Shown here in pieces: positions 15,899 through 39,115 of a stretch of 64,000 nt of DNA (position 1 is its first letter; each line of letters begins with the position of its first letter). The translations under genes and the position numbers were made by a program. Origin of the DNA: a virus. Location: the IMG/VR virus record IMGVR_UViG_3300045988_135485; one strand, written 5' to 3'. The notes under the pieces are model-generated. The model saw only the letters and a program-made list of their open reading frames with translations, was not told the origin of the DNA and made no database searches.

Positions 15899-16233
15899 TA
15901 AATATCCTCCTTATCTAATCCTAGAACTTCATAAACTTTTATCATTTGTTCCAACGTGGGGTTAATATTACGGAATTTGTGGAAAAGAGCTTTAAACATC
16001 TTATCAGCCTGTCTATTGTCTTTAGCTGCTTGTTCACTTTCCCAGAGATGACCATGCGGGTATTCTCCGCGATAATTGGTTTCTTTATCGAATTTTCCGT
16101 GCCAACCATATTTTTCAACTGTATAATATAAACGACCCACTTTCTCAATTGTACAGTTAAAGCCTTTATCTCTCGGGTCTGATGGTTCAAACCATACTTC
16201 TTGACCTACTTTAAACATCTTTCTTATCCTCAT
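15898..16233 (-). CDS. hypothetical protein
   Basis: 111 aa ORF. Confidence 0.45.
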   Translation of the reverse strand: MRIRKMFKVGQEVWFEPSDPRDKGFNCTIEKVGRLYYTVEKYGWHGKFDKETNYRGEYPHGHLWESEQAAKDNRQADKMFKALFHKFRNINPTLEQMIKVYEVLGLDKEDI

Positions 16234-21927: not shown

Positions 21928-22353
21928 CTAAATCTTAAAAGCTGATGTCTCTTCAAATTGAGCTTCAGTCGCTGTTTTAAGTATCATCCAAACATTTACA
22001 CCGTAATAATCGGCAATTTTTATCAAATCAAGCAAGGTCAAATCTATTGTCCCTCTTTCAATCTGATTCAACTTCGTTGAAGTGATGCCGATTTCAGCGG
22101 CTACAAATGCCAGCGGTTTCTTAGCCCGGAAATTTCGTTCCCAAGCCAGTTTTTCTCCAAGGGCGGCGTGTAACTTAGTAAGGGGCATACGACTGATAAT
22201 CTTTTTATTGCTGTTTGATTTCAAAGGCAGATTAAGTCTTTTGGCGAGATTGTATGGATATGTTCTCGAAGTTCCAAATTCTTTACTGATTTCACTAGCA
22301 GTTCTTCCGTTCTTAATCCACTCGATTATTTTATCTCTATATTCATTAAGCAT
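21928..22353 (-). CDS. XRE-family HTH transcriptional regulator
   Basis: 141 aa with LNQIERGTIDLTLLDLIKIADYYGV. Confidence 0.65.
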   Translation of the reverse strand: MLNEYRDKIIEWIKNGRTASEISKEFGTSRTYPYNLAKRLNLPLKSNSNKKIISRMPLTKLHAALGEKLAWERNFRAKKPLAFVAAEIGITSTKLNQIERGTIDLTLLDLIKIADYYGVNVWMILKTATEAQFEETSAFKI

Positions 22354-23754: not shown

Positions 23755-23945
23755 TAAATAATATCTCCTTTTAAAGTTATTCCATACTTCTTACAAAGTT
23801 CGTCCATTCTCTTAGTTTCTGACCTGTCATACTGTTTCCAAAGCTCCACCAACTCGTCTAAGTTTTTTAGCCTTTCCTTAAGTTTCTGGTCTTCTAAGTT
23901 TTTCTTAAACTTGTAAAAATCATAAATTATACATTTCTCTGGCAT
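23754..23945 (-). CDS. hypothetical protein
   Basis: 63 aa ORF. Confidence 0.35.
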   Translation of the reverse strand: MPEKCIIYDFYKFKKNLEDQKLKERLKNLDELVELWKQYDRSETKRMDELCKKYGITLKGDII

Positions 23946-23987
23946 TATATCTCCTTTTAAAGGAATTATACTATGTTTATTAAAACG

Positions 23988-24539
23988 TCAACAACTTTTT
24001 TCAAAAATATTTCTTACCACTGCTTCATTTTCTTTATCAACTCCAACAAAATGTTTTGAAATCTCGTCCAACTTTTTTTGACAATCTTCTTGAGAACCAC
24101 AGATTATCTTCTCAGATTTCAAAAGCTGGACTTCTCTACCCTTCTTTTTCAGAAGATTAGCAACAACCACATATTTAAAAGCTGCTTTCAATACTTGAGG
24201 TTCCTTTACTTCAAGTCCATCTAAGTCAGTCAGTTTATAGATAAACATATCTTCTCCGTTTATGGTTAAAACAGGAAGAACGTCCACACCTAGGTTAGGA
24301 TAATAAATTGTAGTTTTATCTTCGGGTTTTTCTACAAATTCAACATCAGTAATATTTAAGCTCGGGTCTTCCATTGAATCACCGACAATATCGTATGCCA
24401 GACTAATATCTTTTCCGTTTCTTTCTACAGTTATGGAATAGACACAATTTCCTTTTTGACAGCCCTTTACAAGTAATTTTTCCTCTCCGAGATAAACAAA
24501 ATCTCCTTCCCGGATTATGTTCATAATTGCTTTTTCCAT
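23988..24539 (-). CDS. hypothetical protein
   Basis: 183 aa ORF. Confidence 0.45.
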   Translation of the reverse strand: MEKAIMNIIREGDFVYLGEEKLLVKGCQKGNCVYSITVERNGKDISLAYDIVGDSMEDPSLNITDVEFVEKPEDKTTIYYPNLGVDVLPVLTINGEDMFIYKLTDLDGLEVKEPQVLKAAFKYVVVANLLKKKGREVQLLKSEKIICGSQEDCQKKLDEISKHFVGVDKENEAVVRNIFEKSC

Positions 24540-24562
24540 TTTGGTCTCCTTTCTTGCCTTGT

Positions 24563-24612
24563 TTTCTACTTTACTTTCTACTTTACTTTCTTTTCTATTT
24601 TACTTTCTTTTC
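24563..24612. repeat. tandem CTACTTTACTTTCT-type repeats
   Basis: Read directly. Confidence 0.5.
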
Positions 24613-24801
24613 GATATAATACCAAATTAAAACGGCTGTTTGGTACTTATCAATATTACGGAATTGAACCGACTTCACGTCAGGATACTTTTCTGTAAGG
24701 TCATTAAACTCCTGTTCAAAGTTTTTAGTCAAATTTAATTTTTTGACTTTTAAGACCTTTTTTACTTTCGTCTCCGATTCCTTTTTTACATTTCCAGACA
24801 T
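24595..24801 (-). CDS. hypothetical Lys-rich protein
   Basis: 68 aa ORF. Confidence 0.35.
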   Translation of the reverse strand: MSGNVKKESETKVKKVLKVKKLNLTKNFEQEFNDLTEKYPDVKSVQFRNIDKYQTAVLIWYYIEKKVK

Positions 24802-25199
24802 ATTTCTTCTCCAAAATTAGGTTCTTGTTTTACAATAAAAATCTTTTCAGCTTTCATATCATTACTGATATTTTCTTCTTCCAAGATTTCCTTCCACTCT
24901 TTAGCTTTATCACAAGCTTTTTTATAAGTTAAATCTTTTTCTACAATCATCATGTGTTTCTTATTCCGGTATTTCAGAACCAGAAAATAAAGACTTTTCT
25001 CGTCCTTTCGCTTATAAGGAGAAACATCCTCAATAATTGAGGCCAGTTCGGCTGGCATTTCATCTTCATAAGAAGTATTAATAATAAGACCTTCTTCCCT
25101 ATAAATTTCTTTAGCTTCCTCCTTGGAATTAGCCTCAACAACATATTTTACAACTGCATTGATTTTTTGTGATTGTCTACAAGTAACTGTCCACTTCAT
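24786..25199 (-). CDS. hypothetical protein
   Basis: 137 aa ORF. Confidence 0.45.
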   Translation of the reverse strand: MKWTVTCRQSQKINAVVKYVVEANSKEEAKEIYREEGLIINTSYEDEMPAELASIIEDVSPYKRKDEKSLYFLVLKYRNKKHMMIVEKDLTYKKACDKAKEWKEILEEENISNDMKAEKIFIVKQEPNFGEEICLEM

Positions 25200-25408
25200 A
25201 TTTCCTCACCTTTTATAATTGTTAATTCACAACAATCTCTAAGATATTCTACAGCCTCTTCCAAACTATAATTGGGACAACAAGCTAGTCTGGATTCGGG
25301 AACGAACTCAAGTTGGTCTTTATAATTTTCCTCCTTAGCATATTCAATTAACTGGTTTTCAGTAAAACACCCTTTATACTTATCATAATCAATTATGAAG
25401 TATAACAT
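25196..25408 (-). CDS. hypothetical protein
   Basis: 70 aa ORF. Confidence 0.4.
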   Translation of the reverse strand: MLYFIIDYDKYKGCFTENQLIEYAKEENYKDQLEFVPESRLACCPNYSLEEAVEYLRDCCELTIIKGEEI

Positions 25409-25427
25409 ATTATTCTCCTTTCAATTA

Positions 25428-25479
25428 CATCCTTACATAGCACCCTTACATAGCACCCTTACATAGCACCCTTACATAG
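25428..25479. repeat. tandem 13-bp repeat CACCCTTACATAG x 4, intergenic
   Basis: Read directly. Confidence 0.6.
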
Positions 25480-26011
25480 CGTCAATCTTTGCAATCAATT
25501 CTCTGGCTCTTTCTTCGGTCATATTTTCTTCAGATTCAAACTCTTTTATAATCTCCAATGCTTCAGGATTCGCTACTATTCTTAATTCATAGTTCTTATC
25601 AAACATTCGACCTTCTCGAAACCAATCAAATAAAAGTGGCTCAGTTTCACCTAAATAATCCCTGATAAATTTTTCATCGTTCTCTGAAACAAAGGATGTA
25701 GAACTACCATCTGCGTCAGGCCAAGGAAAGTCATTGTCTCTCTGATACCCAATTTCCCGTTCGGCAAACTCTTCATAGGAAGCATTTTCGCCGTATTTTG
25801 CTGCCTCAATCCAAAAGTACCTATCTACATAATCAGTTGGATTTTCCTCTGCATCTTCCCATAAGGACTCAGCCCTGCTCTTAGTAATGTATTCAAGACC
25901 TATTCCTGTCGCACCTTTAAAGTCTCCATCCCAAAAAACGGCCTCGAGATATATAATTACATCATCATCATCTATACCAATTAAAATTTTATTTCTGCTT
26001 TCCAAACGCAT
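25472..26011 (-). CDS. acidic protein (candidate DNA mimic / anti-restriction)
   Basis: 179 aa, strongly Asp/Glu-rich. Confidence 0.45.
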   Translation of the reverse strand: MRLESRNKILIGIDDDDVIIYLEAVFWDGDFKGATGIGLEYITKSRAESLWEDAEENPTDYVDRYFWIEAAKYGENASYEEFAEREIGYQRDNDFPWPDADGSSTSFVSENDEKFIRDYLGETEPLLFDWFREGRMFDKNYELRIVANPEALEIIKEFESEENMTEERARELIAKIDAM

Positions 26012-26059
26012 AGCTAGTCTCCTTTCTTAAACAATCTCTTTTTTAAACAATCTCTTTTA

Positions 26060-26323
26060 TTAACCAAAAAACAATCCAGATTTAATTATAGATTTAAATT
26101 GGTAATAATACTCCTTAAATCGTTCATCATCTGATGCAATCTCTACCCAAAAAACTTCGTCTATATCCGAAGCATCATCAGAAGTCATTATAGCCCATTC
26201 TTCATACCGATACTCGTTATTAGCAAAACGAGCCAAAGTATCCATCGCTTTTAATGCCTTAACCCTATTAATCATTACCTTTTGTGTTACGTCTAAGCCC
26301 ATAATCAGTTCCCCCCTTTTCAA
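26060..26323 (-). CDS. hypothetical protein
   Basis: 87 aa ORF. Confidence 0.4.
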   Translation of the reverse strand: MKRGELIMGLDVTQKVMINRVKALKAMDTLARFANNEYRYEEWAIMTSDDASDIDEVFWVEIASDDERFKEYYYQFKSIIKSGLFFG

Positions 26324-27907: not shown

Positions 27908-28130
27908 CTTCGTTCTCCCTAAAATATTTAGCCTCGTTAGTATAAGCTTCTAATAAACTAGTTTCATCTAATTCTGGACAACGGCTTATATAATAGCTCT
28001 GTCCATCTGGTTGAAGCATATCTTTTCCAAATTTAACGGCCTTCTCTTTTGAATCAAATTCAAGAATATACTTCAAAAGCCAGTTTTCTTTAGGAGAAAC
28101 AATATAAACCGTCCAAGTCTTTTCAGTCAT
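27900..28130 (-). CDS. hypothetical protein
   Basis: 76 aa ORF. Confidence 0.4.
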   Translation of the reverse strand: MTEKTWTVYIVSPKENWLLKYILEFDSKEKAVKFGKDMLQPDGQSYYISRCPELDETSLLEAYTNEAKYFRENEDV

Positions 28131-28149
28131 GGTCTTACTCCTCTTTCAA

Positions 28150-28593
28150 TTATATTTTTGATTTTCTCGTATAGTGGTCTCTACTATACAAGAAATCCCA
28201 ATAACGACTCAACTCATCCAACATATTATACATAGTAAGTTCTAAAGTAGATGGATTTATTTCCTGACCGTTAATCCCCTCTTTTGGAGCAACAGTTAAA
28301 AAGAGATAATTACCATCTCCGTTATCTCTCCAATACTCATAAGAACTTACGTCATAGAAAAAATAAATACTGACATGACGTAATTCCACCTTTAGTTTAT
28401 CAGCTTTTTTATAAAAGGCATAATAACCTTTTTTATTAAAACAATCGGTTCTTAAATCTACTCTGAAATCAAAAATATCTTCACCATTTTCTTCATAAAA
28501 AACATCAACTTTTGTTGATAAACTATCGGCTAGAGCTTCCCAATCGCGGCTAGAAAATACTTTTTCAGTCATAATTTTACTCCTTTTCTTCAA
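28150..28593 (-). CDS. hypothetical protein
   Basis: 147 aa ORF. Confidence 0.45.
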   Translation of the reverse strand: MKKRSKIMTEKVFSSRDWEALADSLSTKVDVFYEENGEDIFDFRVDLRTDCFNKKGYYAFYKKADKLKVELRHVSIYFFYDVSSYEYWRDNGDGNYLFLTVAPKEGINGQEINPSTLELTMYNMLDELSRYWDFLYSRDHYTRKSKI

Positions 28594-28901
28594 TCTTTTT
28601 CGCTTTCGGAATCAGAATCGCTTTCGTCTTCCTCGTCCTCGTCATCTTCGTCCTCGTCCTCATCATCTTCACAATCACAATCGCAATCATTTATACCAAC
28701 CAAGTCAAAGCACCACTCCCAGTCAAACCATAGGAGGTCGTTCATAGTTACTTCCGGGATTCCGTCAGGATAAAGTTCCCGAATCTGGGCCGAGAACGCG
28801 TCCGCTTTCCCGGCATCGACTATTTTCTCTTTTGTATTTATGGCTGTTTCACCCCATGGTTCAAATTCTTCTAAGTCAAAATCTTTACAAATCATATACA
28901 T
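28590..28901 (-). CDS. protein with extremely acidic C-terminal tail (DCDCDCEDDEDEDEDDEDEEDESDSDSESEKD)
   Basis: 103 aa ORF with a 20-bp palindrome 50 bp upstream. Confidence 0.5.
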   Translation of the reverse strand: MYMICKDFDLEEFEPWGETAINTKEKIVDAGKADAFSAQIRELYPDGIPEVTMNDLLWFDWEWCFDLVGINDCDCDCEDDEDEDEDDEDEEDESDSDSESEKD

Positions 28902-28950
28902 TTTTATGTTCCTTTCAATTTCTGTTCAATTTTCCTATTCTTCTTTCAAT

Positions 28951-28970
28951 TTGTTCCAACGTTGGAACAA
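28951..28970. promoter_or_regulatory. 20-bp perfect palindrome TTGTTCCAACGTTGGAACAA (operator-like)
   Basis: Read directly; about 50 bp upstream of the gene starting at 28901. Confidence 0.6.
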
Positions 28971-28987
28971 CTTGGGTAATTTTATGG

Positions 28988-29653
28988 TTAAATCATTTTT
29001 ATAAACTTTTTCGCCTCTTCAACTGAAAAAGCTTTGCAAAAATCATCCGGGAAATTGTTATACATTGCTTCAAAAGCTTTATCAAAGTCGCTATCAATAA
29101 AGCCGCTTAAATTATCCTCCTCTTCATCATTTCTAAAAAGATGATACTCCCAACATTCGCAGTTGGCCCAATCAGAATACTGTTTAACTTCCGTCTTTAC
29201 CCAATAATCGATTTTTTTCTTAAATTTGACAGAAATCCGATGCTTTTTAAATTCCCGGTAAATATGTGCCTTTTTTACTAAATAGAAACCTATACATCCG
29301 CAATCCCAGCCAGTTGATTTTCCAATAAACATATTCCATCCGCTGTGGTCGTAGACAGATACAGGATAAACAATAAAACCCATTTCCTCTAAACGTTTTT
29401 TGTCTGTCTGGTAATTACCAGATGACCAATCGGAAAAGTCGCCTGTTTCTGTAAGTTCATTCTCAACGTACTCACAAGAATTTTTTACAAAAAACTTACC
29501 AATAAGGCAATCACAATCGTTGCGAGGATTGTCGCAGAACCGGTCTCTGGTTATTTCAATTCTCCAGTTCTCTAATTTAGGGTCAATAACTCCCGGCAAT
29601 TCATACTGAATCTCGTTCTGGATTACGTTCTGAATCTCGTTTGCATTAATCAT
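28988..29653 (-). CDS. hypothetical Cys-rich protein
   Basis: True start MINANEIQ preceded by AGGAAAGGA. The track ORF extends through the palindrome using a TTG start. Confidence 0.45.
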   Translation of the reverse strand: MINANEIQNVIQNEIQYELPGVIDPKLENWRIEITRDRFCDNPRNDCDCLIGKFFVKNSCEYVENELTETGDFSDWSSGNYQTDKKRLEEMGFIVYPVSVYDHSGWNMFIGKSTGWDCGCIGFYLVKKAHIYREFKKHRISVKFKKKIDYWVKTEVKQYSDWANCECWEYHLFRNDEEEDNLSGFIDSDFDKAFEAMYNNFPDDFCKAFSVEEAKKFIKMI

Positions 29654-29701
29654 AACTTGTTCCTTTCCTAAAACAAATTCAAGTTGTTCAAGTGGTTTAA
29701 G

Positions 29702-29721
29702 TTGTTCCAACGTTGGAACAT
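29702..29721. promoter_or_regulatory. palindrome copy (18-bp perfect TGTTCCAACGTTGGAACA)
   Basis: About 50 bp upstream of the start at 29653. Confidence 0.6.
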
Positions 29722-29802
29722 TTACATTCTTCTAGAATGTTAATAATTTAGTTTTGTCTAAATAAGATGAAAAAATATTTTTGTGCTGTATTTGTCTAAA
29801 AA

Positions 29803-29994
29803 TTAACCTACTTTTGAGTATGTAAAAATAGGTCGAAATTTACATACAAATTGGTATATATAATAATTTGTTGCTGTCTTCCTAAATTGTGTATTTGTGT
29901 ATTTTCGGAAATGTATCCAAAAATACATCTGAAGATACGCAACCAATAAGCCAACTATTAAACCAGTCAATAAAATGGTTATTAAACCAGTCAT
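29803..29994 (-). CDS. small N-terminal-TM protein
   Basis: 63 aa ORF. Confidence 0.3.
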   Translation of the reverse strand: MTGLITILLTGLIVGLLVAYLQMYFWIHFRKYTNTQFRKTATNYYIYQFVCKFRPIFTYSKVG

Positions 29995-30008
29995 TAAACC
30001 CCACTTTT

Positions 30009-30215
30009 TTAGGCAGTGGTTGCATACACTGTCCTCTCTGGTACCCCCCTACCTGAAAGTAGGCTCATATTACTCACAGCTAAAATTTTGAAGATTTTAC
30101 CATCTTGAGAAAAGACACAGAGGCGGGGGCGTTTCTCAAAAAGGTCAAATTCGAGTTTTACAACCATGTTTTGTTTGGCATATTTCACGATTAAGTCGGA
30201 TAAGTTCTTTACCAT
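30009..30215 (-). CDS. hypothetical small protein
   Basis: 68 aa with AAAGGAAACAA upstream. Palindrome and 14-bp direct repeats lie 25-85 bp upstream. Confidence 0.4.
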   Translation of the reverse strand: MVKNLSDLIVKYAKQNMVVKLEFDLFEKRPRLCVFSQDGKIFKILAVSNMSLLSGRGVPERTVYATTA

Positions 30216-30273
30216 CGTTTGTTTCCTTTCAGTTGTGTTACCATGGTTTGTTTACCATGGTTTGTTTGCTAGG

Positions 30274-30293
30274 TTGTTCCAACGTTGGAACAA
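30274..30293. promoter_or_regulatory. palindrome copy (20-bp perfect)
   Basis: About 60 bp upstream of the start at 30215. Confidence 0.6.
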
Positions 30294-30341
30294 TCTTAAA
30301 ATGAACGCGGAATCTTTTCCCAAAATTCTCCCCAAATTGAT

Positions 30342-30410
30342 TCCGGATTTTGTTTCCAAATCTCGTCCGGAATCTGGTCCGGATTCTGGTCGGAATTGTC
30401 GCCGGAAAAA
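30342..30410 (+). repeat. iteron-like direct repeats TCCGGA(A/T)T(C/T)TGG (about 4 copies, 12-bp period)
   Basis: Read directly; related CCGGATTCCTG repeats at 31226-31254 and 18-bp repeats at 31456-31510. Confidence 0.6.
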
Positions 30411-31040
30411 GTACTCAGTTTTATTCCCTCCCTAGACAAAGAGACGGAATTTTGAAAAAAAGGTATTATTCTACCTTTTTTGGACAGAAAAATGAAAAAA
30501 ACTAGAACCAAGATAGAACAATTATTTCACCATCTTTGACCAAGTTGTTGTTTTTACTCTTTTGTCTAGTTTTTTTTTGAGTTGACAGACTATTTTAAAT
30601 TGTCTCTATATAGAATTTTTTTATAAATACCCCATAGGGTATATTTATCTTATTTTTTTTCCGTGAATCTTAAAAAAAAAAAAAAATCTATTTTAGACAA
30701 AATATATAAAAACAATGGGTTAGATGTAAACTACTCCAGTGGTGTTCTAATAATGTTCAAGTGGTTAAAAAAAAGCGGGTCCTTATTTTATTGTATAAGT
30801 TTCATTTGTCTAATTTGTCAGATGTTTTTTCTTGGTTTTTCAATGGCTTATTTTATTTTCTCCTTATATAGTAAAAATGATACGTTTCAGTCTAAAAAGT
30901 GGTTCTTTGTCTAGACTGTGAAAGTGCTTGAAACGGGGAACGCCTTTGTCTATCTGGCATAGACGGGGTGTGGACGAAATTCCGCCCTTTCTTCTGTCAA
31001 GAAAATGTCTAACAGTCTAAAATCGACAAAATCTGTCAAT

Positions 31041-31057
31041 TTTCCAACGTTGGAACA
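31041..31057. promoter_or_regulatory. palindrome copy (TTCCAACGTTGGAA, 14-bp core)
   Basis: Read directly. Confidence 0.55.
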
Positions 31058-31069
31058 CGGAGTCAATTT

Positions 31070-31087
31070 TGTTCCAACGTTGGAACT
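31070..31087. promoter_or_regulatory. palindrome copy (GTTCCAACGTTGGAAC, 16-bp)
   Basis: Read directly; 29 bp from the previous copy. Confidence 0.6.
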
Positions 31088-31204
31088 TTTTCGGAATCCC
31101 TTAATATGATTCCAAAACTTTTTCGCGCGCCATCTTAAGCGGCCATTTAATATATAAATTAAAGAAAAATAAAGAAAAGATATAAAGAGAATCCCGCCCG
31201 GGAC

Positions 31205-31224
31205 TTGTTCCAACGTTGGAACAA
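31205..31224. promoter_or_regulatory. palindrome copy (20-bp perfect)
   Basis: Read directly; just downstream of the 266-aa gene. Confidence 0.6.
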
Positions 31225-31255
31225 ATCCCGGATTCCTGCCCGGATTCCTGCCCGG

Positions 31256-32056
31256 TTAGGCGGCCAACTTTTCGGTTGTTTGTATTTTCTGGTATGCCTG
31301 TGTTATCACTTCCACAACGTCGCCCGCCATCGTAACCGCCTCGCCATAACCGTAAATCTTAACAACGTTATCAAACGCGGTTATAAATTCGCTGGCTGCT
31401 TGCATCAATACGACTTCCGGCGGAAGTTGTACCGATTCCGGGCTGTTTTCCGTTCCCGTTTCTGAATCTGATTCCGGGTTAGATTCTGATTCCGGGTTAG
31501 ATTCTGATTCGTCGCTTGTGCTCGGCTTCGGCTGTTTTTCTGGCTTAAGAGCGTCATACAAACCGCGCAAACTTTCATAGTTTGCAAAAATACTGCCCGT
31601 TATTTCTGCAATAGCCGCGGCGGGCGTGCCTATTATGTTAGACTCTTTAATAATATCGCGGTTTAATTCGATTAATTTTAATGCCGCTTTAATTTTAGCG
31701 TAGATGGATGATTTTTGCGGGTGTGTCCGAATATCCGCGTTTATTTTAAATAAGTGTAAAATTATGTGCTTTCTGAATCCTTTTTCATCCATCTTTTTAT
31801 TAAAAGTCGAGTAATATAAACGGGCTTTAAAGATTGACTTTACAACGGCGAGTCCAGCTAATCCGGCTTTGTTTTCCGCGTTTGTTTCTCTTAAATAGGC
31901 ATTGTAACCCTCTTTTAAATAAGATAAAACTACTTCTTTCGGCTCGCCTGTAAAGTCATTTGACAAACGAACGTTGCGGGCGTTATTCTCATTTAACGGC
32001 TTATAGTCTGGCTTGTGCAGAGGTTGGGATGACTGGTTAATATGTTTAATAGACAT
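31256..32056 (-). CDS. hypothetical two-domain protein with acidic SESNPE-repeat linker (candidate origin-binding initiator or regulator)
   Basis: 266 aa. The linker-coding DNA (31456-31510) is itself an iteron-like 18-bp tandem array. The gene is flanked by palindromes and repeat arrays. Confidence 0.5.
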   Translation of the reverse strand: MSIKHINQSSQPLHKPDYKPLNENNARNVRLSNDFTGEPKEVVLSYLKEGYNAYLRETNAENKAGLAGLAVVKSIFKARLYYSTFNKKMDEKGFRKHIILHLFKINADIRTHPQKSSIYAKIKAALKLIELNRDIIKESNIIGTPAAAIAEITGSIFANYESLRGLYDALKPEKQPKPSTSDESESNPESESNPESDSETGTENSPESVQLPPEVVLMQAASEFITAFDNVVKIYGYGEAVTMAGDVVEVITQAYQKIQTTEKLAA

Positions 32057-32221
32057 GATTTTGACTCCTGTATATAAAATGTTAATAAATGTTAATAGCT
32101 GTTATTTTCTTAATGATTCCACAAGCCCGCAAATAGCGGTGTATATGGTTATAAATAATATTGTGTAAATAGCTAGTGTAAACATTGATGACTCCTTTTA
32201 GTTGGCTTATATGTTTATTTA

Positions 32222-32241
32222 ATGTTCTAACGTTAGAACAT
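32222..32241. promoter_or_regulatory. symmetric variant palindrome ATGTTCTAACGTTAGAACAT
   Basis: Both half-sites carry the same C-to-T change, so dyad symmetry is kept. About 165 bp upstream of the 266-aa gene. Confidence 0.55.
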
Positions 32242-32275
32242 CTTTGATTTAGGCAATATTCAGATATTACCGATA

Positions 32276-32299
32276 CGCGGGGGCGGCAACCCCCGCGCG
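32276..32299. other. GC-rich hairpin CGCGGGGG-cggcaa-CCCCCGCG (no T-tract)
   Basis: 8-bp GC stem in an otherwise AT-rich region. Confidence 0.5.
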
Positions 32300-32638
32300 G
32301 TTTGCATAAAATTTACTTATTCACAATGTGCTATAACTACCAGCCGCCCGGCTGATGACTGTTATATATAAGCTAATTAGTTACTTGTCAACTACTTTTT
32401 TGCACTTTTTTTAAAAAAAGTACACTTTTTTTAGTAAGTCATTGTTTTTGCGTGATTCTTTTTTTATGTTAAGTTTATTATAAGGTATACACACGGGCAC
32501 GTGCTATACATGCAAACGTAACCTTTACATATAGGCCGGGTGATAGGGGTGTAGGCTTTTTATATGGGAGAATAAAAAGGTGGCGGAGAACAGGCCCCGA
32601 TTCTGACCCCCCGCCCAAAACCATTTCCACCTAACACA

Positions 32639-32712
32639 ACCTACCAACTTACCTACCAACTTACCTACCAACTTACCTACCAACTTGCCTACCAACTTGC
32701 CTATCACCTGAC
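32639..32712 (+). repeat. tandem 12-bp iterons (A/G)CCTACCAACTT x about 6
   Basis: Read directly. Followed by TTCGCGGTC-type repeats (32720-32780) and CGACCAGAA repeats (32848-32900). Confidence 0.65.
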
Positions 32713-32919
32713 AGGACCGCGAACGCGAGCGCAGTCACTTTCGTGTTCGCGGTCGCATTCGCGGTCACGTTCGTTTTCATTTTTGAGGTTCTCAGCAAGG
32801 GGAACGACCACGAACACGAACGCAAAAGCCGACATAAACTTGACAAGAATCTTAACCAGAACTAGAATCTTAACAGTCGACCAGAATAATCGACCAGAAC
32901 AGGGAGGGAGAAACAACAA

Positions 32920-33402
32920 ATGGATTCAATGATAGCAGGCAACAGCCAAAATCAAAATGCACAAAATCTTAAACATAACTTCAAACAGATAACCTATACC
33001 AAAAACTCAACTAAACAGAAAGAGGAGCGTGCCTTCTTCAAGAATCGTGTTAAGAAAGCATTTCTTCACTGGTTATATTACAAGGGGCTCATTCCGTGGA
33101 AAGAGCTCCCTTCTTTTTTAGATGTTCACCACAAGCATCCGCTAGGCGGTGGCGGCAGCAATGAATTTACCAACTTGGTAATAATGGTCAGGCGAGACCA
33201 TGAGAAAATGAACAGGGAAATAATAGAGCCGCAGTTGCGTGGCATTCGGGAGGGTGAAACCAGAGAAATAACGGTTCCTTGGTGGAACTCTGAGAAGGGA
33301 GAATTTATTGATTGGGAAGGCATATACCGGTATTTGGAAGAGCTCGAACGCTCTCGACGTATGCGTTCCTCCGATCGCGCATGCGGTCGCGGAGGTAGAT
33401 GA
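32920..33402 (+). CDS. HNH endonuclease
   Basis: 160 aa with DVHHKHPLGGGGSNEFTNLVIMVRRDH core (H-N-H). Confidence 0.65.
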   Translation: MDSMIAGNSQNQNAQNLKHNFKQITYTKNSTKQKEERAFFKNRVKKAFLHWLYYKGLIPWKELPSFLDVHHKHPLGGGGSNEFTNLVIMVRRDHEKMNREIIEPQLRGIREGETREITVPWWNSEKGEFIDWEGIYRYLEELERSRRMRSSDRACGRGGR

Positions 33403-33565
33403 CGGTTGCATACACGAACATATATATGATTGTGTATGCGACCATATATGCAAAAAATTTGCACATATTAGCGGGAAAAGAGGTCATTCAATACACTTTT
33501 TGCAAATAAATGCTAAAAAAGAGGCTTTTTTGCGGTTTTTAGCATTTATTTGCAAAAAAGTGTAA

Positions 33566-33611
33566 GAAAAAGGCCATTCTGTGTGAAAAAATCACACAGA
33601 ACGGCCTTTTT
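33566..33611. terminator. bidirectional rho-independent terminator
   Basis: Stem GGCCATTCTGTGTGA/TCACACAGAACGGCC flanked by an A-run and a T-run. Preceded by a roughly 20-bp-arm palindrome at 33500-33555. Confidence 0.55.
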
Positions 33612-33659
33612 TAGCTTAAATTGGTTGATTTTGACCAATTTTGGTTCATCTCGGCGTAT

Positions 33660-33989
33660 TTATGAAAAGATTCCTCTATCTCGATACTTTTTTACCTGTT
33701 TCCGGTCCTGAATCTCGGCTCGTTTGCGTAGCCTTTTGGCTTTTTTATAGACCTCTCCGGTTACTTTCTTGCCTTCAAGAACGTATATGACAGCCTCCTT
33801 TTCCACAACCTCCTTTTCCTCAACCGATTCTACAGGTCGCTCTGCAAGCGGGCACCCGTCGTCTTGTCCATTGTGAGTCCATTCACCATCAAGCCATCGA
33901 CTTGAAAGCCCATAAAGTTGCCTAATTCGGTCAGCCTCCGTAAGAAGCCTCTCAACCCCACAGGCCTTGCACGGATAGTCGCACAGCAA
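33660..33989 (-). CDS. hypothetical protein (overlaps primase 3' end in another frame; doubtful)
   Basis: 109 aa ORF with a 160-nt overlap. Confidence 0.25.
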   Translation of the reverse strand: MLCDYPCKACGVERLLTEADRIRQLYGLSSRWLDGEWTHNGQDDGCPLAERPVESVEEKEVVEKEAVIYVLEGKKVTGEVYKKAKRLRKRAEIQDRKQVKKYRDRGIFS

Positions 33990-36340
33990 AAGCTCGTGTA
34001 TTTTTCGTACAGAGAATTTACCAATACTGAGCCGCTCCCGGTTTCCGTCCTCCTCGGTCCCTCCTCCGAGGTCAGGTAGAAAAAAACTGAGTCATTCTCA
34101 CTGGCCATCTCCCTGATTATCTGTTGATGGCTGCTTGGTAAAGTAAAATCTCTTTGCTCTACCAATTCTCTAACGCAGGAGATAACCCATGCGGCAATGC
34201 CCTCTCTCTCCTCAGCGACTATTGTTTCACCAATGTTGCGGACTTTATCCTTCTTTTTAACCGCATGGTTGAACGTAAGAATGAGCCATCGTCTATTGAA
34301 TCCTTCCGATACGTCCTTTGTCTTTGGCAGGTAGTTACTGGCAAACCAATGCGTCGCCATCGGCGTAAAGGAAAATATCGGTCTTCCTTTGTACTGGCCA
34401 TCTAAGGTACTTCCGTCAATAATCGATTTAAAACTTGCTCCCGGAATCGGTTGCGATTCGTTTAACTCGCCACAAATGTTTAAAAGGGATTTGGATAATT
34501 CCGTTACTTCGAATTTATCTTCAAACTTGTAGGGAGTTACATATGAAATAACCTCCTTGGGTAGTAAGTGTTTAACTATTTCCAATAATTGAGATTTACC
34601 CGAGCCCGCAATACCATAGAGAAGAATGGCTCTGGCAAATGAGGGCCCCATTCCGAAGAAGGTTGCACACATCGCTTCCTGAAGAGCTCTCTTTCTCGCT
34701 TCAAAATCCAGTTCCATACCCCAAATTGATTCCAGAAACTTATCAAATCTAGGATGATGGTCAACAAGCTCAGGTACATATCTGAAGGGCAGCGTATAGG
34801 TACATCCGAAGGAAGGGTCGTGAGGAAAGGTCATTCCGTCACTGCTTACGAAACAGTTTGCAAAATTGACACCCTGTATTTTTCTACTATTCAGGTCAGT
34901 TTGAGGAACAATTGACTTTAATACTTTCAAAACCCCGGCATGATCGTGAGCCTTTCTTGCAGCAGGAAGATTCCCGTAATTGTTAGCTACTAAACAAAGT
35001 ATTTCCTGTTCAGACAATACTTCCCAGTTGGAGCCCTTATACTGCCAGAATTTATCATTCCAGAAGTGAACTTCTCCTATTCTCTTCAGGTCTTCCAGCA
35101 CGGCTCTGGCTATTTCCGTGTGGTCAATTCCCTCCAGTTCTCCCCGTCGCAGTTCCTGTAGACGTTTCTTTAGGCTAGGAACCTGAATAGTTTTACTGTT
35201 AGTTTGTTTTATGTAGGTGAAGACCGTATCTATTTCTAAGGACGTTAAATGCGGAGAACGACTAATTCTGCGTAGAACATATTCTATGGCCGAAATCCTT
35301 TGAATAGCCCCCTCATCTTCGTATTTTTCAAACTCGGTCTTGAGATAATCTTTCAGTTGTTCTACCGACCATTCGTTATGTTCGGCATCGAATTTAAGAC
35401 CCCAGCTTTCTTTCTGTTCCTCGGTAAGTCCGGTATCCCATCCGAGAGGAAGCGGTTTATTTTTCGGGCCTACAACATCCTGAATCAGGAACTGAATGAG
35501 GTTGCGGACACCTTTCTCGATGTCAATGTCGTCTCCGGCCACATTCTCAACACAGCAGGTTTTCCATACATACATACGGTCTATTGCTTCCAGCAGCGAT
35601 AACTCTCCTCTGGTTACTGCATTTGCATAGAAGCCTGCCATCGTGGTCATCTTTACGTCACGGCTTCCCTGAGAAACGTAATCCGTAGTTCTGGTCCAGC
35701 CTGCGTGAGACAGCGTAATTCCGTAATCTTGGAAAGCGTTCCTTAACATGGATTCGAGGTTTTCCGGAAGAGGTTTCAGATAAGGTATAACCTCTGTAAT
35801 CGGTTGATTACAAACGTACGGCTTCTGTGTTTTGGGATGTATTGACGGTGGTAGAACCACTTGGTTGCCGGAAGATAGACATTCACAAATCATGTGACCG
35901 TCTACGTCTTTAATTTTAAACGGTTTCTCTCCTTTATATTTATAAAGGAGAACTTTTCCCTTTTGTCCGACACGTTCCCAAGGAGAATATCCACAGATTT
36001 CATTGATTATATTAATAAGTGTCTTATTCTCGGTATCAATATCAATGGCAACACATCCCGACTGCGGTCCTAACGGCAATCCTATGTTACTGTCCGGGAA
36101 ATTGTTTAGCCAGTGGTCTTGTTCCTGAGGAAGCGGCATCTTGTCCTTATAAGAGGTCCAGTTTATCGGAATCGGTTCCTTGCCGCGAGGGCGTAACGGT
36201 ATTACCGGAAGCCCTTTTTGCCAAAGAAGCGGGGCATTATTCTTGAAAAGGTCCTTATTCGGGAAAAGAGTTATGTTTTGGGAGATTTTTTCTTTCTCTT
36301 CTGCTAAGTCCTTGGCTAGTTTTAAAGTATTACCTGTCAT
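33830..36340 (-). CDS. primase-helicase (prim-pol N-terminal domain, PriCT/D5_N, SF3 helicase; P4 alpha-like)
   Basis: 836 aa with Walker A GIAGSGKSQ. The domain order is typical of phage/plasmid P4-family primases. Confidence 0.8.
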   Translation of the reverse strand: MTGNTLKLAKDLAEEKEKISQNITLFPNKDLFKNNAPLLWQKGLPVIPLRPRGKEPIPINWTSYKDKMPLPQEQDHWLNNFPDSNIGLPLGPQSGCVAIDIDTENKTLINIINEICGYSPWERVGQKGKVLLYKYKGEKPFKIKDVDGHMICECLSSGNQVVLPPSIHPKTQKPYVCNQPITEVIPYLKPLPENLESMLRNAFQDYGITLSHAGWTRTTDYVSQGSRDVKMTTMAGFYANAVTRGELSLLEAIDRMYVWKTCCVENVAGDDIDIEKGVRNLIQFLIQDVVGPKNKPLPLGWDTGLTEEQKESWGLKFDAEHNEWSVEQLKDYLKTEFEKYEDEGAIQRISAIEYVLRRISRSPHLTSLEIDTVFTYIKQTNSKTIQVPSLKKRLQELRRGELEGIDHTEIARAVLEDLKRIGEVHFWNDKFWQYKGSNWEVLSEQEILCLVANNYGNLPAARKAHDHAGVLKVLKSIVPQTDLNSRKIQGVNFANCFVSSDGMTFPHDPSFGCTYTLPFRYVPELVDHHPRFDKFLESIWGMELDFEARKRALQEAMCATFFGMGPSFARAILLYGIAGSGKSQLLEIVKHLLPKEVISYVTPYKFEDKFEVTELSKSLLNICGELNESQPIPGASFKSIIDGSTLDGQYKGRPIFSFTPMATHWFASNYLPKTKDVSEGFNRRWLILTFNHAVKKKDKVRNIGETIVAEEREGIAAWVISCVRELVEQRDFTLPSSHQQIIREMASENDSVFFYLTSEEGPRRTETGSGSVLVNSLYEKYTSFCCATIRARPVGLRGFLRRLTELGNFMGFQVDGLMVNGLTMDKTTGARLQSDL

Positions 36341-36882
36341 AATCTATATTTCCCCTCTTCAATAACCTTCGTTGTACCTAACCCTGTCCCCGGTTCTGTA
36401 CCTAATTCTTCTCTACTTTCCGATTCTGCGAGTTCTCTTAAGAACATTTCTCTTTGTTCAGGAAGAACCTTTTTTAGAATCTTCAAGACTTTGGATTCAA
36501 ATTCCCGCATTTGATTCAGATTTGTTGCTCTCTCCGCCAACGTAAGCAGCTTCTCCAGCTGGGTGGTTGCCGTTCTTTGGATAGAAGCTTTGTCTTTATC
36601 GTCTATTTCGTTGGATTTAAGTAATTCTTTAGTTTGCCAGTACAGATTAATTATTTCTGTCTTCAGGTCTAAGTTTGTCATGGTAGGAAGGTCTGCCTTT
36701 GACGAACTTTCTCCGGTGTTAATACTAACCGGTGGGAAAATAAGGTTGAGAGACTTTTTGATAGGTTCTGAATATGGAGATTCGGCTACATACTTAGGGT
36801 TTTTTTTTATCTCTAATCCTATAGAATAAATCTTAAAAACGGTCTCATAATTTATATCAGGATATTTATTGTTTTGAGCCAT
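36337..36882 (-). CDS. hypothetical coiled-coil protein
   Basis: 181 aa ORF immediately upstream of the primase. Confidence 0.45.
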   Translation of the reverse strand: MAQNNKYPDINYETVFKIYSIGLEIKKNPKYVAESPYSEPIKKSLNLIFPPVSINTGESSSKADLPTMTNLDLKTEIINLYWQTKELLKSNEIDDKDKASIQRTATTQLEKLLTLAERATNLNQMREFESKVLKILKKVLPEQREMFLRELAESESREELGTEPGTGLGTTKVIEEGKYRL

Positions 36883-37096
36883 GGGTCGATTCTCCGTTTA
36901 AAATTAAAGGTTCTGAAGAAGTATGGTTTTTAAAAAGTTCTACATCTGTAAGTAGAAAATATACCTTTCCTCCTAAAGTTCTTCGGGGAACTAATGAACC
37001 CTTCTTTATATAGCGGTAAATGGTTTGGTAAGAAACACCGACCCTTTTGGCAAAGCTTTCAATGCTTATGCGTTTATCTCTATCAGTAACTTCCAT
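36866..37096 (-). CDS. HTH DNA-binding protein (excisionase/AlpA/MerR-like)
   Basis: 76 aa with FAKRVGVSYQTIYRYIKKGSL. Confidence 0.6.
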   Translation of the reverse strand: MEVTDRDKRISIESFAKRVGVSYQTIYRYIKKGSLVPRRTLGGKVYFLLTDVELFKNHTSSEPLILNGESTHGSKQ

Positions 37097-37384
37097 AATC
37101 CCTCCCTAAATGTTATGGTATGTTAGGTTGTGTAAAGTGGTGGTAGTCTACGATATATTTTTGTAAATGTCAAGCAAAAAACCTCAGTTTATTCAACTGA
37201 GGTTTCGGTGGAACTAATTAAGAAAAATAATATGTAGGTGTTTAATGATTCATGCGTCAAACTGTTATTAACTGACTAGCTATTCTTGGATTCGATTATC
37301 TTATATCTTATATAAAATACTTTGTCAATAGAAAAGTTGACTATTTTAAAAAATAGGTTTAGGCTGTGCTAAAACGGAGGTAAA
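37097..37384. promoter_or_regulatory. divergent promoter region with two inverted repeats
   Basis: Inverted repeat AAACCTCAGTT-n6-AACTGAGGTTT (37178-37205) overlaps reverse-strand TTGACA-17-TAGACT. Palindrome CTATTTTAAAAAATAG (37341-37356) sits between plus-strand TTGACT and TAGGCT upstream of terL. Confidence 0.5.
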
Positions 37385-39115
37385 ATGAAATACGTCTTCT
37401 CAAATAATCCTTATCTTCAAGCCTTAGCAGAAAAAGTCATAAGACAAAAGACCGATTCTGATATGGCCGAATGGGTTTGTAATAACACAACCTTAGCCGG
37501 GGGACCGTTTTCTTTGAAGAATAGGGGTTATCAGAGAGCCGTATTGGCTGATATGCACCCTAACCTTTGTTGTAAGAAGTTATCCCAAATCGGAATGACT
37601 GAATGTCAGATTCGTAAAGCTCTTGGTTTTATGGTAATGAACCCCGGAACCCGCGTTCTTTATACTTTTCCGACTAAGATATTGAAAGATAATAACAGTG
37701 CTCCTCGTATTCGCCCTATTTTTGATACGGACTTTCCGGGACAAGGTGATATAAGAAATAATAATATTCTTCAGATAGGTTCATCTTTCTTATATATTTC
37801 CGGTGGTTCCGAATCCGATGTTACATCTACGCCGGTAGATATGATTTTAAATGACGAAATTGATTTGGGAACATCAGAATTTTATGCCTTGGCTAATTCC
37901 AGACTTCAAGCGTCCGTCTATCAAATTAAACAAAGCTTTTCCACCCCTACCTTTGAAAATTTCGGTATCTCAGCTGATTATAATTCTTCTGACCAACGGG
38001 AATATTTTGTGAAATGCCCGCATTGTAACGAATGGCAGGTACCTCTTTATGACCTAGAATCCGTATATATTCCTAAGTTACCAAAGTTTATCCAAAGGCT
38101 TACAGATATAAAAGAGGACGTAGCCGTAGGATTAGATTACGACAATTCTTGCGTCGTATGCAAAAAGTGTCGGCATCCGCTTGATTTATCTGATGACGCT
38201 ATTCGGGAATGGGTTCCCACCTATCCGTCCAGAGAACATCACAGAGGATACCAGATTCGTCCATTTAGTACCAATTTATTGTCTATTAAATACTTGGTAA
38301 TGACAATGGCCGATTGTATAAAAAGAGGTCAAATCCGCCGCGGATATAATACGGTTCTTGGAGAAGAATATAAAGAGGGAGACGCTCGTATTGACGTTAA
38401 GGCGATTAAGAAATGCTTTAAATCGCAGGTAGTTCCGGAAGTTTCGCCGGATAAACCTGTATATATAGGTATAGATGAAGGCCTAACCTGCCATATAGTC
38501 CTTTACACAGACGGGGCGGCCTTCGCCTTTATTAGGGTTATTTACGACCAACTGTTGAGTAAAGTAAAGGAATTGGATAAGAAATACAATATTGTTGCCG
38601 GAGCTATCGACCGTTATCCTTATACTCCTTTATCAAATGATATTAGAGATATGACTGAGGGCCGTATCCAGCCAGTAGTTTACGGAGGCCAGAAGATTGC
38701 TGAGCCTAAACACGAACAAGATAAAGCAGTATCTTTCTATATGTGTAACCGTACCCACGCCCTTGATGCAGTTAAGTCTAAGATAGTGAACGGAGAGATT
38801 GATTTTTACGGTTATTATGACCAAGAAGAATTAATCACCGAGCATTTACAAGACATGGCCAGAGAAGACGTTCCCGGAAAACAACCTGAGTGGGTAAAGT
38901 TGAACGGGAATGACCACTATTTTCATGCGCTTGGATACGCTCTTTTAGCCAAACAGATAAAATATGTAGCCGGTCTCGGTCTAAAAAATGAAGACAGAAC
39001 AATAATTAGCTTGACAGGTCCAGAAGAAAATTATAAAAATAAGGATAAGATGAAGGATAGGTCTAACCTGTGTGGCTATATGAGTGGCTATTCAACTAAC
39101 AGGTTATTGTATTAG
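37385..39115 (+). CDS. terL: terminase large subunit (GpA-type)
   Basis: 576 aa with Walker A-like region, CPHCNEWQ zinc motif and CVVCKKC. Confidence 0.8.
   Translation: MKYVFSNNPYLQALAEKVIRQKTDSDMAEWVCNNTTLAGGPFSLKNRGYQRAVLADMHPNLCCKKLSQIGMTECQIRKALGFMVMNPGTRVLYTFPTKILKDNNSAPRIRPIFDTDFPGQGDIRNNNILQIGSSFLYISGGSESDVTSTPVDMILNDEIDLGTSEFYALANSRLQASVYQIKQSFSTPTFENFGISADYNSSDQREYFVKCPHCNEWQVPLYDLESVYIPKLPKFIQRLTDIKEDVAVGLDYDNSCVVCKKCRHPLDLSDDAIREWVPTYPSREHHRGYQIRPFSTNLLSIKYLVMTMADCIKRGQIRRGYNTVLGEEYKEGDARIDVKAIKKCFKSQVVPEVSPDKPVYIGIDEGLTCHIVLYTDGAAFAFIRVIYDQLLSKVKELDKKYNIVAGAIDRYPYTPLSNDIRDMTEGRIQPVVYGGQKIAEPKHEQDKAVSFYMCNRTHALDAVKSKIVNGEIDFYGYYDQEELITEHLQDMAREDVPGKQPEWVKLNGNDHYFHALGYALLAKQIKYVAGLGLKNEDRTIISLTGPEENYKNKDKMKDRSNLCGYMSGYSTNRLLY

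Follow-up and report, generated by a model that had tools for sequence, protein, structure and literature searches.

A 64-kb stretch of an uncultured gut phage, virus record IMGVR_UViG_3300045988_135485 (the window), contains seven copies of a repeated palindrome, here called dyads and numbered S1 to S7 by rising coordinate. They have the consensus (TTG)TTCCA-ACGT-TGGAA(CAA), are 14-20 bp long and all fall within 28951-32241, in a region of early genes on the minus strand. The sites exist in numbers far from random, and both the sites and the architecture in which they are set are conserved across diverged phage lineages. We read the dyads as operators on double-stranded DNA for a phage-encoded symmetric dimer, some autoregulatory and others acting as roadblocks in the manner of stoperators, and consider the chances of this reading to be evenly balanced. 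Comparison of sequences suggests that a protein binds the sites, that its ligand is double-stranded DNA, that the binder may be a 266-amino acid (aa) protein encoded among them and that the effect would be repression.

Matches to TTGTTCCAACGTTGGAACAA are found at 28951, 30274 and 31205 without a mismatch and at 29702, 31069 and 31039 with one, two and three mismatches, respectively, and none of 100 shuffled controls contains any match. The generic core TTCCA-N4-TGGAA occurs six times in the window against 0.12 expected in 64 kb, every time within 28954-31221, and no exact copy lies elsewhere in the 64 kb. The remaining matches with at least two mismatches, at 14816 and 15946, look like chance. 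S7 is a doubly substituted variant, GTTCTAACGTTAGAAC at 32224-32239 or, in its full length, ATGTTCTAACGTTAGAACAT at 32222-32241. From S1 to S7 the perfect palindromes measure 20, 18, 20, 14 (31042-31055), 16 (31071-31086), 20 and 20 bp. A first-pass annotation of the window had reported seven copies, including one with a matching change in both half-sites, and the match scan and the 100 shuffles show them to be real. The positions that it gave for five copies (28951, 29702, 30274, 31205 and 32222) stand, while the two others, 31041 and 31070, were each off by one. The genome-wide count that it had proposed, made here over the 64-kb window, confines the palindrome to 28951-32241.

The placement of the sites, which had also been described correctly, is not uniform (Table 1). 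Three copies lie ahead of consecutive minus-strand early-gene starts: 49, 48 and 58 nt separate the ends of the 20-bp sites from the ATGs at 28901, 29653 and 30215. Three more (S6, S5 and S4) lie 31-216 nt past the stop of the 266-aa gene (31256..32056), and one lies 166 nt ahead of its ATG. S6, 31 nt beyond that stop, is followed by a T-rich run on the minus strand, and the 34-bp palindrome of which it is the tip has a folding energy of -26.8 kcal/mol as RNA; this extended palindrome is a probable terminator of the 266-aa gene. It is the only one of the seven to combine a GC-rich stem with a U-run as intrinsic terminators do. The other six are AT-rich stems of 5-8 bp, and no sense-strand T-run was found at any of them. 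IMG/VR contig 116539 and, independently assembled, a Logan contig of ERR11473602 both stop within 20 nt of the S6 palindrome. Either an assembly break or a physical genome end could account for this, and we did not take it as evidence for the latter, since a perfect 34-bp palindrome breaks de Bruijn assemblies anyway.

Conservation of the dyads in related phages

Close relatives, 90-97% identical to the window, are represented by three IMG/VR contigs and several ENA/Logan contigs (L002/L009, L003/L008/L011, L007/L010, L018, L049, L050 and L051). All of them retain every site, even S4 with its imperfect flanks and S7 with its double substitution, and the 16-bp cores have accumulated only two lineage-specific changes (four genomes with 7-8 sites each) against a regional divergence of about 5-10%. 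What differs among the relatives is whole cassettes of dyad, leader and gene. Contig 123405 has an additional gene with its own dyad, bringing it to 8 sites, and in L018, L049 and L051 the equivalent dyads are followed by different genes; the motif thus stands at the boundaries of insertions, deletions and replacements between close relatives, as is looked for in the stem-loop elements of T4-type phages discussed below. The distance from the S2 equivalent to the ATG is 41 nt in L049 and L051, about 48-50 nt in the window and more than 90 nt in L018, and this variation ahead of the same gene is due to expansion of tandem repeats beside the dyads: in L018 S2 is directly followed by (ACTTAAACC)n and S6 by (GATTTTTCTTT)n (at about 3020-3110 and 1490-1560), and such repeats grow and shrink between phages that are nearly identical. 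The window itself has a 9-bp tandem repeat just downstream of S2 (29678-29707), which is expanded in L018. A search of IMG/VR for the exact 18-mer returned the three relatives and four single matches (L001, L004, L005 and L006); the latter have no protein in common with the window and were treated as chance.

Relatives of the 266-aa protein among 5.8 billion proteins are only those at 78% identity or above, and an exhaustive profile search added a handful of distant family members at 22-42% identity. The loci of these distant members are all syntenic. The terminase is followed by an HTH_17 (helix-turn-helix) gene, a gene of ~170 aa, the primase, a variable gene on the opposite strand, non-coding DNA and the family gene, after which come ~1 kb of non-coding DNA and then small early genes. 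At every locus a repeated dyad particular to it occupies the equivalent places. TTCCA-N4-TGGAA is present in five diverged metagenomic lineages (the window group, L045, L046/L048 and L178), in which the half-sites and the spacer length are constant while the four-nucleotide centre varies (ACGT, CTGA, GATG/CATC and CCGG). L046 and L048 differ in the three sites behind the family gene, whose centre is inverted to CATC in L048 with no other change. The shared layout has one site, usually a variant, ahead of the family gene, two or three behind it and others 19-60 nt before downstream starts, where some fall inside the 3' end of the preceding open reading frame (ORF). The site ahead of the family gene is a variant in the window-type, L045 and L014 lineages.

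L014 keeps this layout with an unrelated dyad, ATGCTAAAATTAGCAT, of which one copy lies ahead of the family gene, three are clustered behind it and the rest stand 24-45 nt before downstream starts. Its family protein, P0038, is also the sole member to depart from the near-invariant family stretch HPQKSxIYxKxK, reading HPQAKNIALRVR where the window protein has HPQKSSIYAKIK. Scans for the L014 dyad gave unrelated single matches only (L052 and L173), a search with P0038 found no longer L014-like contigs, and a 15-mer scan for the L046-type dyad, a query too short for the purpose, gave chance matches only.

No nucleotide match to deposited phages was found (megablast of 28000-37400 against 50,697 phage records), nor any match of the 266-aa protein to the same records by tblastn. 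By protein the nearest cultured phages are Achromobacter phages JWF and 2-1, Caulobacter phage Seuss, Xylophilus phage Lumi, Pseudoalteromonas phage KB12-38 and Acinetobacter EAb13-like phages, which share the divergent arrangement of primase and terminase at 32-45% and 34-39% identity, respectively. The closest of the cultured relatives are siphophages with terminal repeats. Direct terminal repeats of 1,748 bp in Seuss and 2,298 bp in Lumi have been reported, and two terminal-repeat relatives have been described as strictly lytic-looking (PMC4591317, PMC9959647). The JWF record likewise terminates in a perfect 1,466-bp repeat. JWF has a dyad of its own, GTTCG(T/A)(A/T)ACGAAC (GTTCGTAACGAAC, or GTTCG-N3-CGAAC), at 10 unique positions against 0.22 expected. 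These are confined to the terminal repeat (398 and 1315) and the adjoining 12.5 kb of minus-strand early genes (68996-79166), and two copies stand ahead of gp001 and gp002, genes carried within the repeat. No conserved promoter was found upstream of the JWF dyads. A non-coding gap of 1 kb (79094-80136) abuts the 1,466-bp repeat of JWF, analogous to the non-coding block of the window. In Seuss (L013/L177) a palindrome TTTACC-TCA-GGTAAA occurs five times (1515-1529, 68938, 76122, 82486 and 84905), each copy overlapping an annotated ribosome-binding site, including those of rIIA and of the repeat-borne gp003/gp120; this palindrome may do in Seuss what the dyads do in the window, or may be an unconnected translation-initiation cassette that these genes share. 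A search of the accessible literature turned up no account of these motifs.

Table 1. Dyads, neighbouring features and the dyads of distant lineages. Positions are those of the window.
Feature	Position	Strand	Description
S1	28951..28970		Perfect 20-bp palindrome; ends 49 nt 5' of the ATG of the 103-aa gene (28901, minus)
S2	29702..29721		Perfect 18 bp at 29703-29720; about 48-50 nt 5' of the ATG of the 221-aa gene (29653, minus)
S3	30274..30293		Perfect 20 bp; 58 nt 5' of the ATG of the 68-aa gene (30215, minus)
S4	31039..31058		Perfect 14-bp core at 31042-31055; identical imperfect flanks in all close relatives
S5	31069..31088		Perfect 16-bp core at 31071-31086; S4-S5 centre distance 30 bp
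S6	31205-31224		20 bp; forms the tip of a 34-bp near-perfect palindrome, 31198..31231
S7	32222..32241		Variant ATGTTCTAACGTTAGAACAT, symmetric C>T / G>A; 166 nt 5' of the ATG of the 266-aa gene; invariant in close relatives
XRE-type HTH protein	21928..22353	minus	Alternative candidate binder
103-aa acidic early gene	28590..28901	minus	phrog_5149; S1 upstream
221-aa early gene	28988..29653	minus	phrog_6186; S2 upstream
68-aa early gene	30009..30215	minus	S3 upstream
Non-coding DNA, ~960 bp	30294..31255		Contains S4-S6 and TAGACAAA repeats
266-aa ORFan-family gene	31256..32056	minus	Leading candidate binder
Sigma-70-type promoter	32363..32391	minus	Near-consensus TTGACA-17-TATATA; upstream of S7 and the 266-aa gene; region conserved
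Prim-Pol / D5-type primase-helicase	33830..36340	minus	Synteny anchor of the module
HTH_17 (excisionase/MerR-type) protein	36866..37096	minus	Alternative candidate binder
L045			Family protein 42% identical; AATGTTCCA-ACGT-TGGAACATT x5 and TTCCA-CTGA-TGGAA x2
L046 / L048			Family protein 22-23% identical; TTCCA-GATG-TGGAA x8 / x6
L178			Family protein 28% identical; TTTTCCA-CCGG-TGGAAAA, 144 nt past the gene
L014			Family protein 28% identical, primase C-terminus 60%; ATGCTAA-AA-TTAGCAT (ATGCTAAAATTAGCAT) at 9 places vs 0.16 expected

Candidate binding proteins and a proposed mechanism

A half-site that is conserved, separated from its mirror image by a spacer fixed in length but free in sequence, points to a dimer that reads two major grooves. 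The symmetry of the dyads extends to 18-22 bp, and sites combining dyad symmetry with a fixed spacer are found both at the family gene and at early transcription units, as expected of operators. The first-pass annotation had proposed operator sites for a dimeric DNA-binding protein. This fits the comparative data best, half-sites and spacer length being constant and the centre free across 22-42% protein identity. The distance from dyad to start codon is tolerant of change, and no recognisable sigma-70 promoters were found between the dyads and the early genes (18 promoter-like matches against 16.4 in shuffles, that is, not enriched). Tolerance of distance and lack of a promoter consensus at the dyads together fit a position-tolerant mechanism such as a transcriptional roadblock.

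Such a mechanism has a known parallel. The stoperators of Cluster A mycobacteriophages (L5 and Bxb1) are 13-bp asymmetric sites that lie genome-wide and are bound, in an orientation-dependent manner, by a monomeric immunity repressor (PMC9283540, PMC6550527). Like them, the dyads are many short sites in the intergenic spaces of co-directional operons, with one or more copies at the promoter of the regulator or of an early gene; their position relative to the next gene is tolerant, and their sequence co-evolves with the phage's own protein. Unlike stoperators, those of the window are perfect dyads, and the sites keep to 3-12 kb beside the end of the genome, in terminal-repeat phages that appear lytic; the candidate 266-aa protein has no Pfam helix-turn-helix match, and no homologue of an L5 gp71-type repressor was found. 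Orientation bias, as in stoperators, is seen in those relatives whose centres are asymmetric.

The 266-aa protein has no sequence match in Pfam, PHROGs, NCBIfam or the PDB. A first AlphaFold model, from a shallow alignment, was unusable (predicted local distance difference test, pLDDT, 46), and a second that included the distant members reached a mean pLDDT of 72.9. In the latter, residues 1-37 are disordered and are followed by a helical domain (38-170, pLDDT about 90), an acidic disordered linker (174-207) and a C-terminal helical hairpin (213-265); the conserved HPQKSxIYxKxK stretch lies at the start of helix 115-131. This domain build would follow the logic of many dimeric DNA binders, and no significant fold match to the usable model was obtained. 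JWF gp002 (233 aa) and Seuss gp003 (223 aa) hold the position of the 266-aa gene in their genomes and have a similar build, with a helical N-terminal part, a Pro/Ala/Glu-rich linker, a C-terminal helical part and an end in ..AKAA or ..AVTA. Neither of them has detectable sequence similarity to the 266-aa family, nor did hhalign with the family profile give a signal, and the relation is thus positional and architectural only. Family C-termini end in K-x-A-A or K-x-x-A, the 266-aa protein in ..KLAA; the other ends seen in the family, JWF gp002 and Seuss gp003 are ..KKAA, ..QKAA, ..KKTA, ..LKVA, ..AKAA and ..AVTA. The resemblance of these tails to the ssrA/ClpX degron suggests regulated proteolysis.

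Synteny and one covariation of specificity, that of L014, point to the 266-aa protein as the putative binder; if the dyads are DNA operators, we would put its claim to be the binder at about even. The earlier statement that no cognate protein can be assigned from sequence therefore largely holds, except that these two lines of evidence now favour one candidate. Two further proteins have to be considered. In every TTCCA-type lineage in which it can be read, the recognition region of the HTH_17 protein is all but invariant, and the protein was not detectable in JWF; the XRE protein is conserved in JWF as gp066.

A near-consensus sigma-70-type promoter precedes the 266-aa gene and its leader of ~300 nt, which includes a GC hairpin (32277-32300) as well as S7. 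The gene is therefore probably immediate-early. Counterparts of the promoter lie ahead of the family gene in L014 (TTGACT-17-TATAAA, 1406-1434) and L178 (TTGACA-16-TATATT, about 440-470). In the mechanism that we propose, the 266-aa protein would be produced first, from this promoter. Each subunit of the dimer would read one (G)TTCCA half-site, with the fixed 4-bp spacer between the two, and the sites would make up a small regulon around the genome end. On accumulating, the protein would fill the dyads and limit its own synthesis through the weaker variant S7 in its leader, and the occupied dyads would block or modulate leftward transcription into the early genes, serving as a shut-off or a timing switch.

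Several points weigh against this proposal. The covariation of specificity is a single contrast, and the HTH_17 and XRE proteins are equally compatible with a conserved half-site. Where the centres are asymmetric they mostly face one way with respect to transcription (seven of seven early sites in JWF, eight of eight in L046 and seven of nine in L014), a bias more natural for an RNA element, although descent from duplicated cassettes would explain it too. The symmetric double substitution in S7 preserves a hairpin equally well. At S4-S5 the entire non-coding stretch is highly conserved, and conservation there is not specific to the dyads. The JWF dyads lie just 5' of the Shine-Dalgarno (SD) sequence, at 13-25 nt from the ATG, and often abut or overlap the preceding stop.

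More broadly, the 266-aa ORFan family and its positional analogues in JWF and Seuss might represent a fold class, so far unrecognised, of sequence-specific nucleic-acid-binding regulators that time the early programme in a widespread group of lytic siphophages with terminal repeats by occupying lineage-specific dyads, one ahead of every early cassette; virulent phages of Proteobacteria would then have arrived independently at the logic of stoperators. We put this forward tentatively and think it somewhat improbable. The gene of such a regulator would lie in or next to the direct terminal repeat, would be the first to be expressed, from a host-type promoter, and would encode an LAA-like degradation tail.

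Competing explanations and known systems

The main rival places the operator in RNA. The dyads would be short hairpins in the leaders or intercistronic spacers of the polycistronic early mRNA, where an RNA-binding protein or a nuclease of the phage would recognise them and so govern the translation, processing or stability of the next cistron. All copies do lie in one direction of transcription within gene arrays, the orientation bias of the asymmetric centres is strong, folding with a loop of 3-4 nt is possible for every version (-2.8 to -9.4 kcal/mol), and pairing survives the compensatory change in S7. JWF dyads sit 4-6 nt 5' of the SD sequence, with no room for a promoter, and the Seuss palindrome, TTTACC-TGA-GGTAAA, overlaps annotated ribosome-binding sites. 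The window also encodes a ProQ C-terminal-like protein, a potential RNA-binding factor (gene at 15898-16233; PF24203, E 1.4e-12). Yet over five diverged lineages the stems are conserved in sequence instead of covarying, whereas the loops are free, the reverse of what is known of protein-hairpin operators. Several versions are weak (5-bp stem, -3 to -5 kcal/mol), the outer pair on the sense strand of L046 and L048 is often A..C, and between these close relatives the centre is flipped at three clustered sites with nothing else altered. The distance from dyad to SD ranges from 19 to more than 90 nt in window-type phages, and Rfam gave no gathering-threshold match over the window (only chance-level E-values of 0.6-1 in 29650-32950). 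A fold z-score of -8.5, which might have indicated a structured RNA in the non-coding region, was discounted as driven by the palindromes themselves. On balance we regard control at the RNA level as unlikely.

Hairpins at the early end of a terminal-repeat genome also recall phage N4, whose virion RNA polymerase uses hairpin promoters with a 5-7 bp stem and a 3-nt loop. The JWF dyad GTTCG-TAA-CGAAC is likewise a short inverted repeat at the early end. It lies too near the SD sequence, however, for a start downstream of it, and the window version differs in its 4-nt centre and 8-bp arms. The Pfam scans covered 50 ORFs of the window, with ~8 kb of the genome lying beyond it; they found no RNA polymerase or sigma factor, and no N4-type virion or single-subunit RNA polymerase was seen in them or in the JWF annotation.

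The dyads might instead belong to the genome end itself, as sites for a replication initiator or primase-helicase of the kind of P4 alpha, or as signals for terminase action or terminal-repeat processing. Three of them lie in ~1 kb of highly conserved, AT-tract-rich non-coding DNA together with TAGACAAA x8, beside a P4-type primase-helicase. Within it, 760 bp without coding capacity (30400-31160) are 95-100% identical over six genomes, above the neighbouring coding gene; the 266-aa gene has only ~75% invariant columns in the same six. No ORF is called within this block in any relative. The block has AT tracts and a run of 15 A (A15); it may serve as an origin or as a packaging signal, or may mark the boundary of the terminal repeat. 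TAGACAAA is a second repeat with 11 copies in the window against 3.8 expected, eight of the 11 clustering in 29753-30952. The equivalent non-coding DNA of L014, L045, L046, L048 and L178 contains TAGACA as well, and this sequence is thus conserved across lineages whether or not they share the dyad.

The terminal repeats of JWF and Seuss lie in exactly this neighbourhood, where the 1-kb non-coding gap of JWF adjoins its repeat, and the P4 ori/crr iterons, TGTTCACC, resemble the half-site TGTTCCA. BFVD searches returned matches to phage 'DnaA C-terminal' proteins that were weak and non-significant. A role in replication or packaging nevertheless leaves at least half of the sites unaccounted for, which stand singly before individual early genes over 3-12 kb and move with their cassettes, and in L014 the primase C-terminus is 60% identical although the dyad is entirely different. 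We judge such a role improbable.

Could the repeats persist simply through the shuffling of early-gene cassettes, with no need of a dedicated regulator? The relatives do differ by whole cassettes (the extra dyad and gene of 123405; the gene swaps of L049, L051 and L018), and centre flips are what recombination between inverted arms would produce. The nearest known case is the PeSL (promoter early stem-loop) of T4-type phages, a sigma-70 early promoter coupled to a terminator-like stem-loop (PMC2839356, PMC4122927). The dyads resemble it as a repeated intergenic stem-loop motif at small early ORFs, where genes are gained, lost or replaced. They differ in that they have no conserved -35 and -10 elements, that S6 alone is terminator-like and that the stem sequence itself is conserved across distant lineages. 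Mosaicism by itself does not explain the conservation of half-sites at 22-42% protein identity, the variant before the family gene, the triplet downstream of it or the switch of dyad in L014. It is compatible with a regulatory role but does not replace one, and as a full account we think it has little probability.

The first-pass annotation had offered, besides operators, centromere-like sites of the parS type. Here a ParB-like protein of the phage or host would bind the sites for segregation of a plasmid-prophage, or else a conserved host regulator would do so. The parS consensus, TGTTNCACGTGAAACA, is a 16-bp sequence of two abutting 8-bp half-sites. With these the window site, TGTTCCA-ACGT-TGGAACA, bears comparison, being similar to a chromosomal parS of the TGTTCCA-CG-TGGAACA-like form. 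In the KorB operators of RK2 there is a comparable system, and both the ParB-type KorB and the SopB of N15 double as regulators. A core GTTC..GAAC is moreover common to phages of different host classes. The centromere of N15 consists of four dispersed inverted repeats (PMC7205306). Palindromes of 16-18 bp of the TGTT..AACA type in dispersed copies, some near promoters, are a feature that the dyads share with such systems.

Set against this consensus, the half-sites of the window (TGTTCCAAC and GTTGGAACA, meeting at the centre) are 2 bp further apart than those of the 16-bp parS, and the sister lineages have the centres GATG, CTGA and CCGG. The scanned window ORFs gave no match to ParA, ParB (ParBc, ParA/CbiA, SopB), an integrase, a protelomerase or Rep, and nothing suggests a plasmid lifestyle: the relatives package genomes with direct terminal repeats, two of them phages described as strictly lytic-looking. 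The sites, finally, follow the starts of early genes, and an unrelated dyad occupies the same places in L014, which favours a phage-specific factor. With its spacing wrong and its partner proteins missing from the scanned ORFs, the centromere proposal is not supported and is best dropped, and we consider any parS or host-factor site very improbable. On comparison by eye, we also rejected MerR-type sites (dyad in a 19-bp spacer), extracytoplasmic function sigma factor sites (GGAAC..CGTT), sigma-54 promoters, alphaproteobacterial and Gram-positive LexA boxes, and Irr/ICE (iron control element) boxes, all for misfit of orientation or spacing.

Lambdoid operator and immunity regions and the lambda O-ori pair offer a further comparison. 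Lambdoid sites are dyad-symmetric, and their regulator or initiator is autoregulated and diverges rapidly with its sites; lambda O is an unstable substrate of ClpXP. Dyad sites, an N-terminal domain joined by a linker to a C-terminal domain and an LAA-like C-terminus are all found here. On the other hand, there is no HTH_3/cI-type domain, lysogeny module or divergent promoter pair, and sites stand before several genes.

Genome context and significance

The minus strand carries all genes of the window from ~3 kb to 37 kb. The window codes for a Prim-Pol/D5 primase-helicase, PolA, a 5'-3' exonuclease, an SNF2 helicase, XRE HTH and HTH_17 proteins and HNH endonucleases, and the module from terminase to tail is complete. 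The gene of one further family member, P0042 (182 aa; L016, 10001-10549), stands alone among housekeeping genes (hfq, hflX, anmK and rmuC) in a bacterial contig of 276 kb. The HflX of this contig is closest to those of metagenome-assembled genomes of low-GC gut Alphaproteobacteria, a weak hint that the host of the phage may be alphaproteobacterial. No TTCCA-N4-TGGAA was found near the P0042 gene in L016, and a search with P0042 itself gave no matches.

Further short tandem repeats were noted. A 14-bp repeat at 30208-30267 duplicates the start context of the 68-aa gene (AAACAAACCATGGTAA x2 ahead of AAACAAACGATGGTAA). Its upstream ATGs are GTG in relatives, so a conserved upstream ORF is unlikely. 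Between the HNH gene and the 266-aa gene lies a 12-bp repeat, ACCTACCAACTT x5.4 at 32639-32703, followed by GC-rich imperfect repeats (32715-32775). Similar GTTAGGTCA repeats occupy the equivalent place in L014, and Seuss has five CCCGCGAGCGG repeats at 1860-1970, just inside the right boundary region of its terminal repeat. Other minus-strand intergenic spacers of the window (23773-26067 and 13827-13870) have short tandem repeats of their own that are unrelated to the dyad, among them CCTTACATAGCAC x3.8 at 25431-25480 and further repeats at 24563-24612 and 26022-26067.

Repeated palindromic regulatory sites in the early regions of phages are in themselves a familiar kind of element, and if none of the readings given here holds, the dyads are an ordinary repeated regulatory palindrome with no bearing on plasmid-like maintenance. 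What is new is an architecture that extends lineage-wide through the JWF/Seuss group, a series of related dyads and an ORFan family next to or in the terminal repeat. The control of early genes is essentially unknown in this group, which has been cultured on Achromobacter, Caulobacter, Xylophilus, Acinetobacter and Pseudoalteromonas and has many relatives in gut metagenomes. The dyads offer a testable handle on it, comprising a defined cis element, three candidate proteins and a cultivable model, JWF, with 10 copies of GTTCGTAACGAAC. They also mark the boundaries of exchangeable early-gene cassettes and may aid the annotation of 'dark matter' early regions. If the ORFan protein does bind the dyads, it would represent a new DNA- or RNA-binding fold and provide an orthogonal series of operators and regulators, which would comprise TTCCA-N4-TGGAA, GCTAA-N2-TTAGC and GTTCG-N3-CGAAC.

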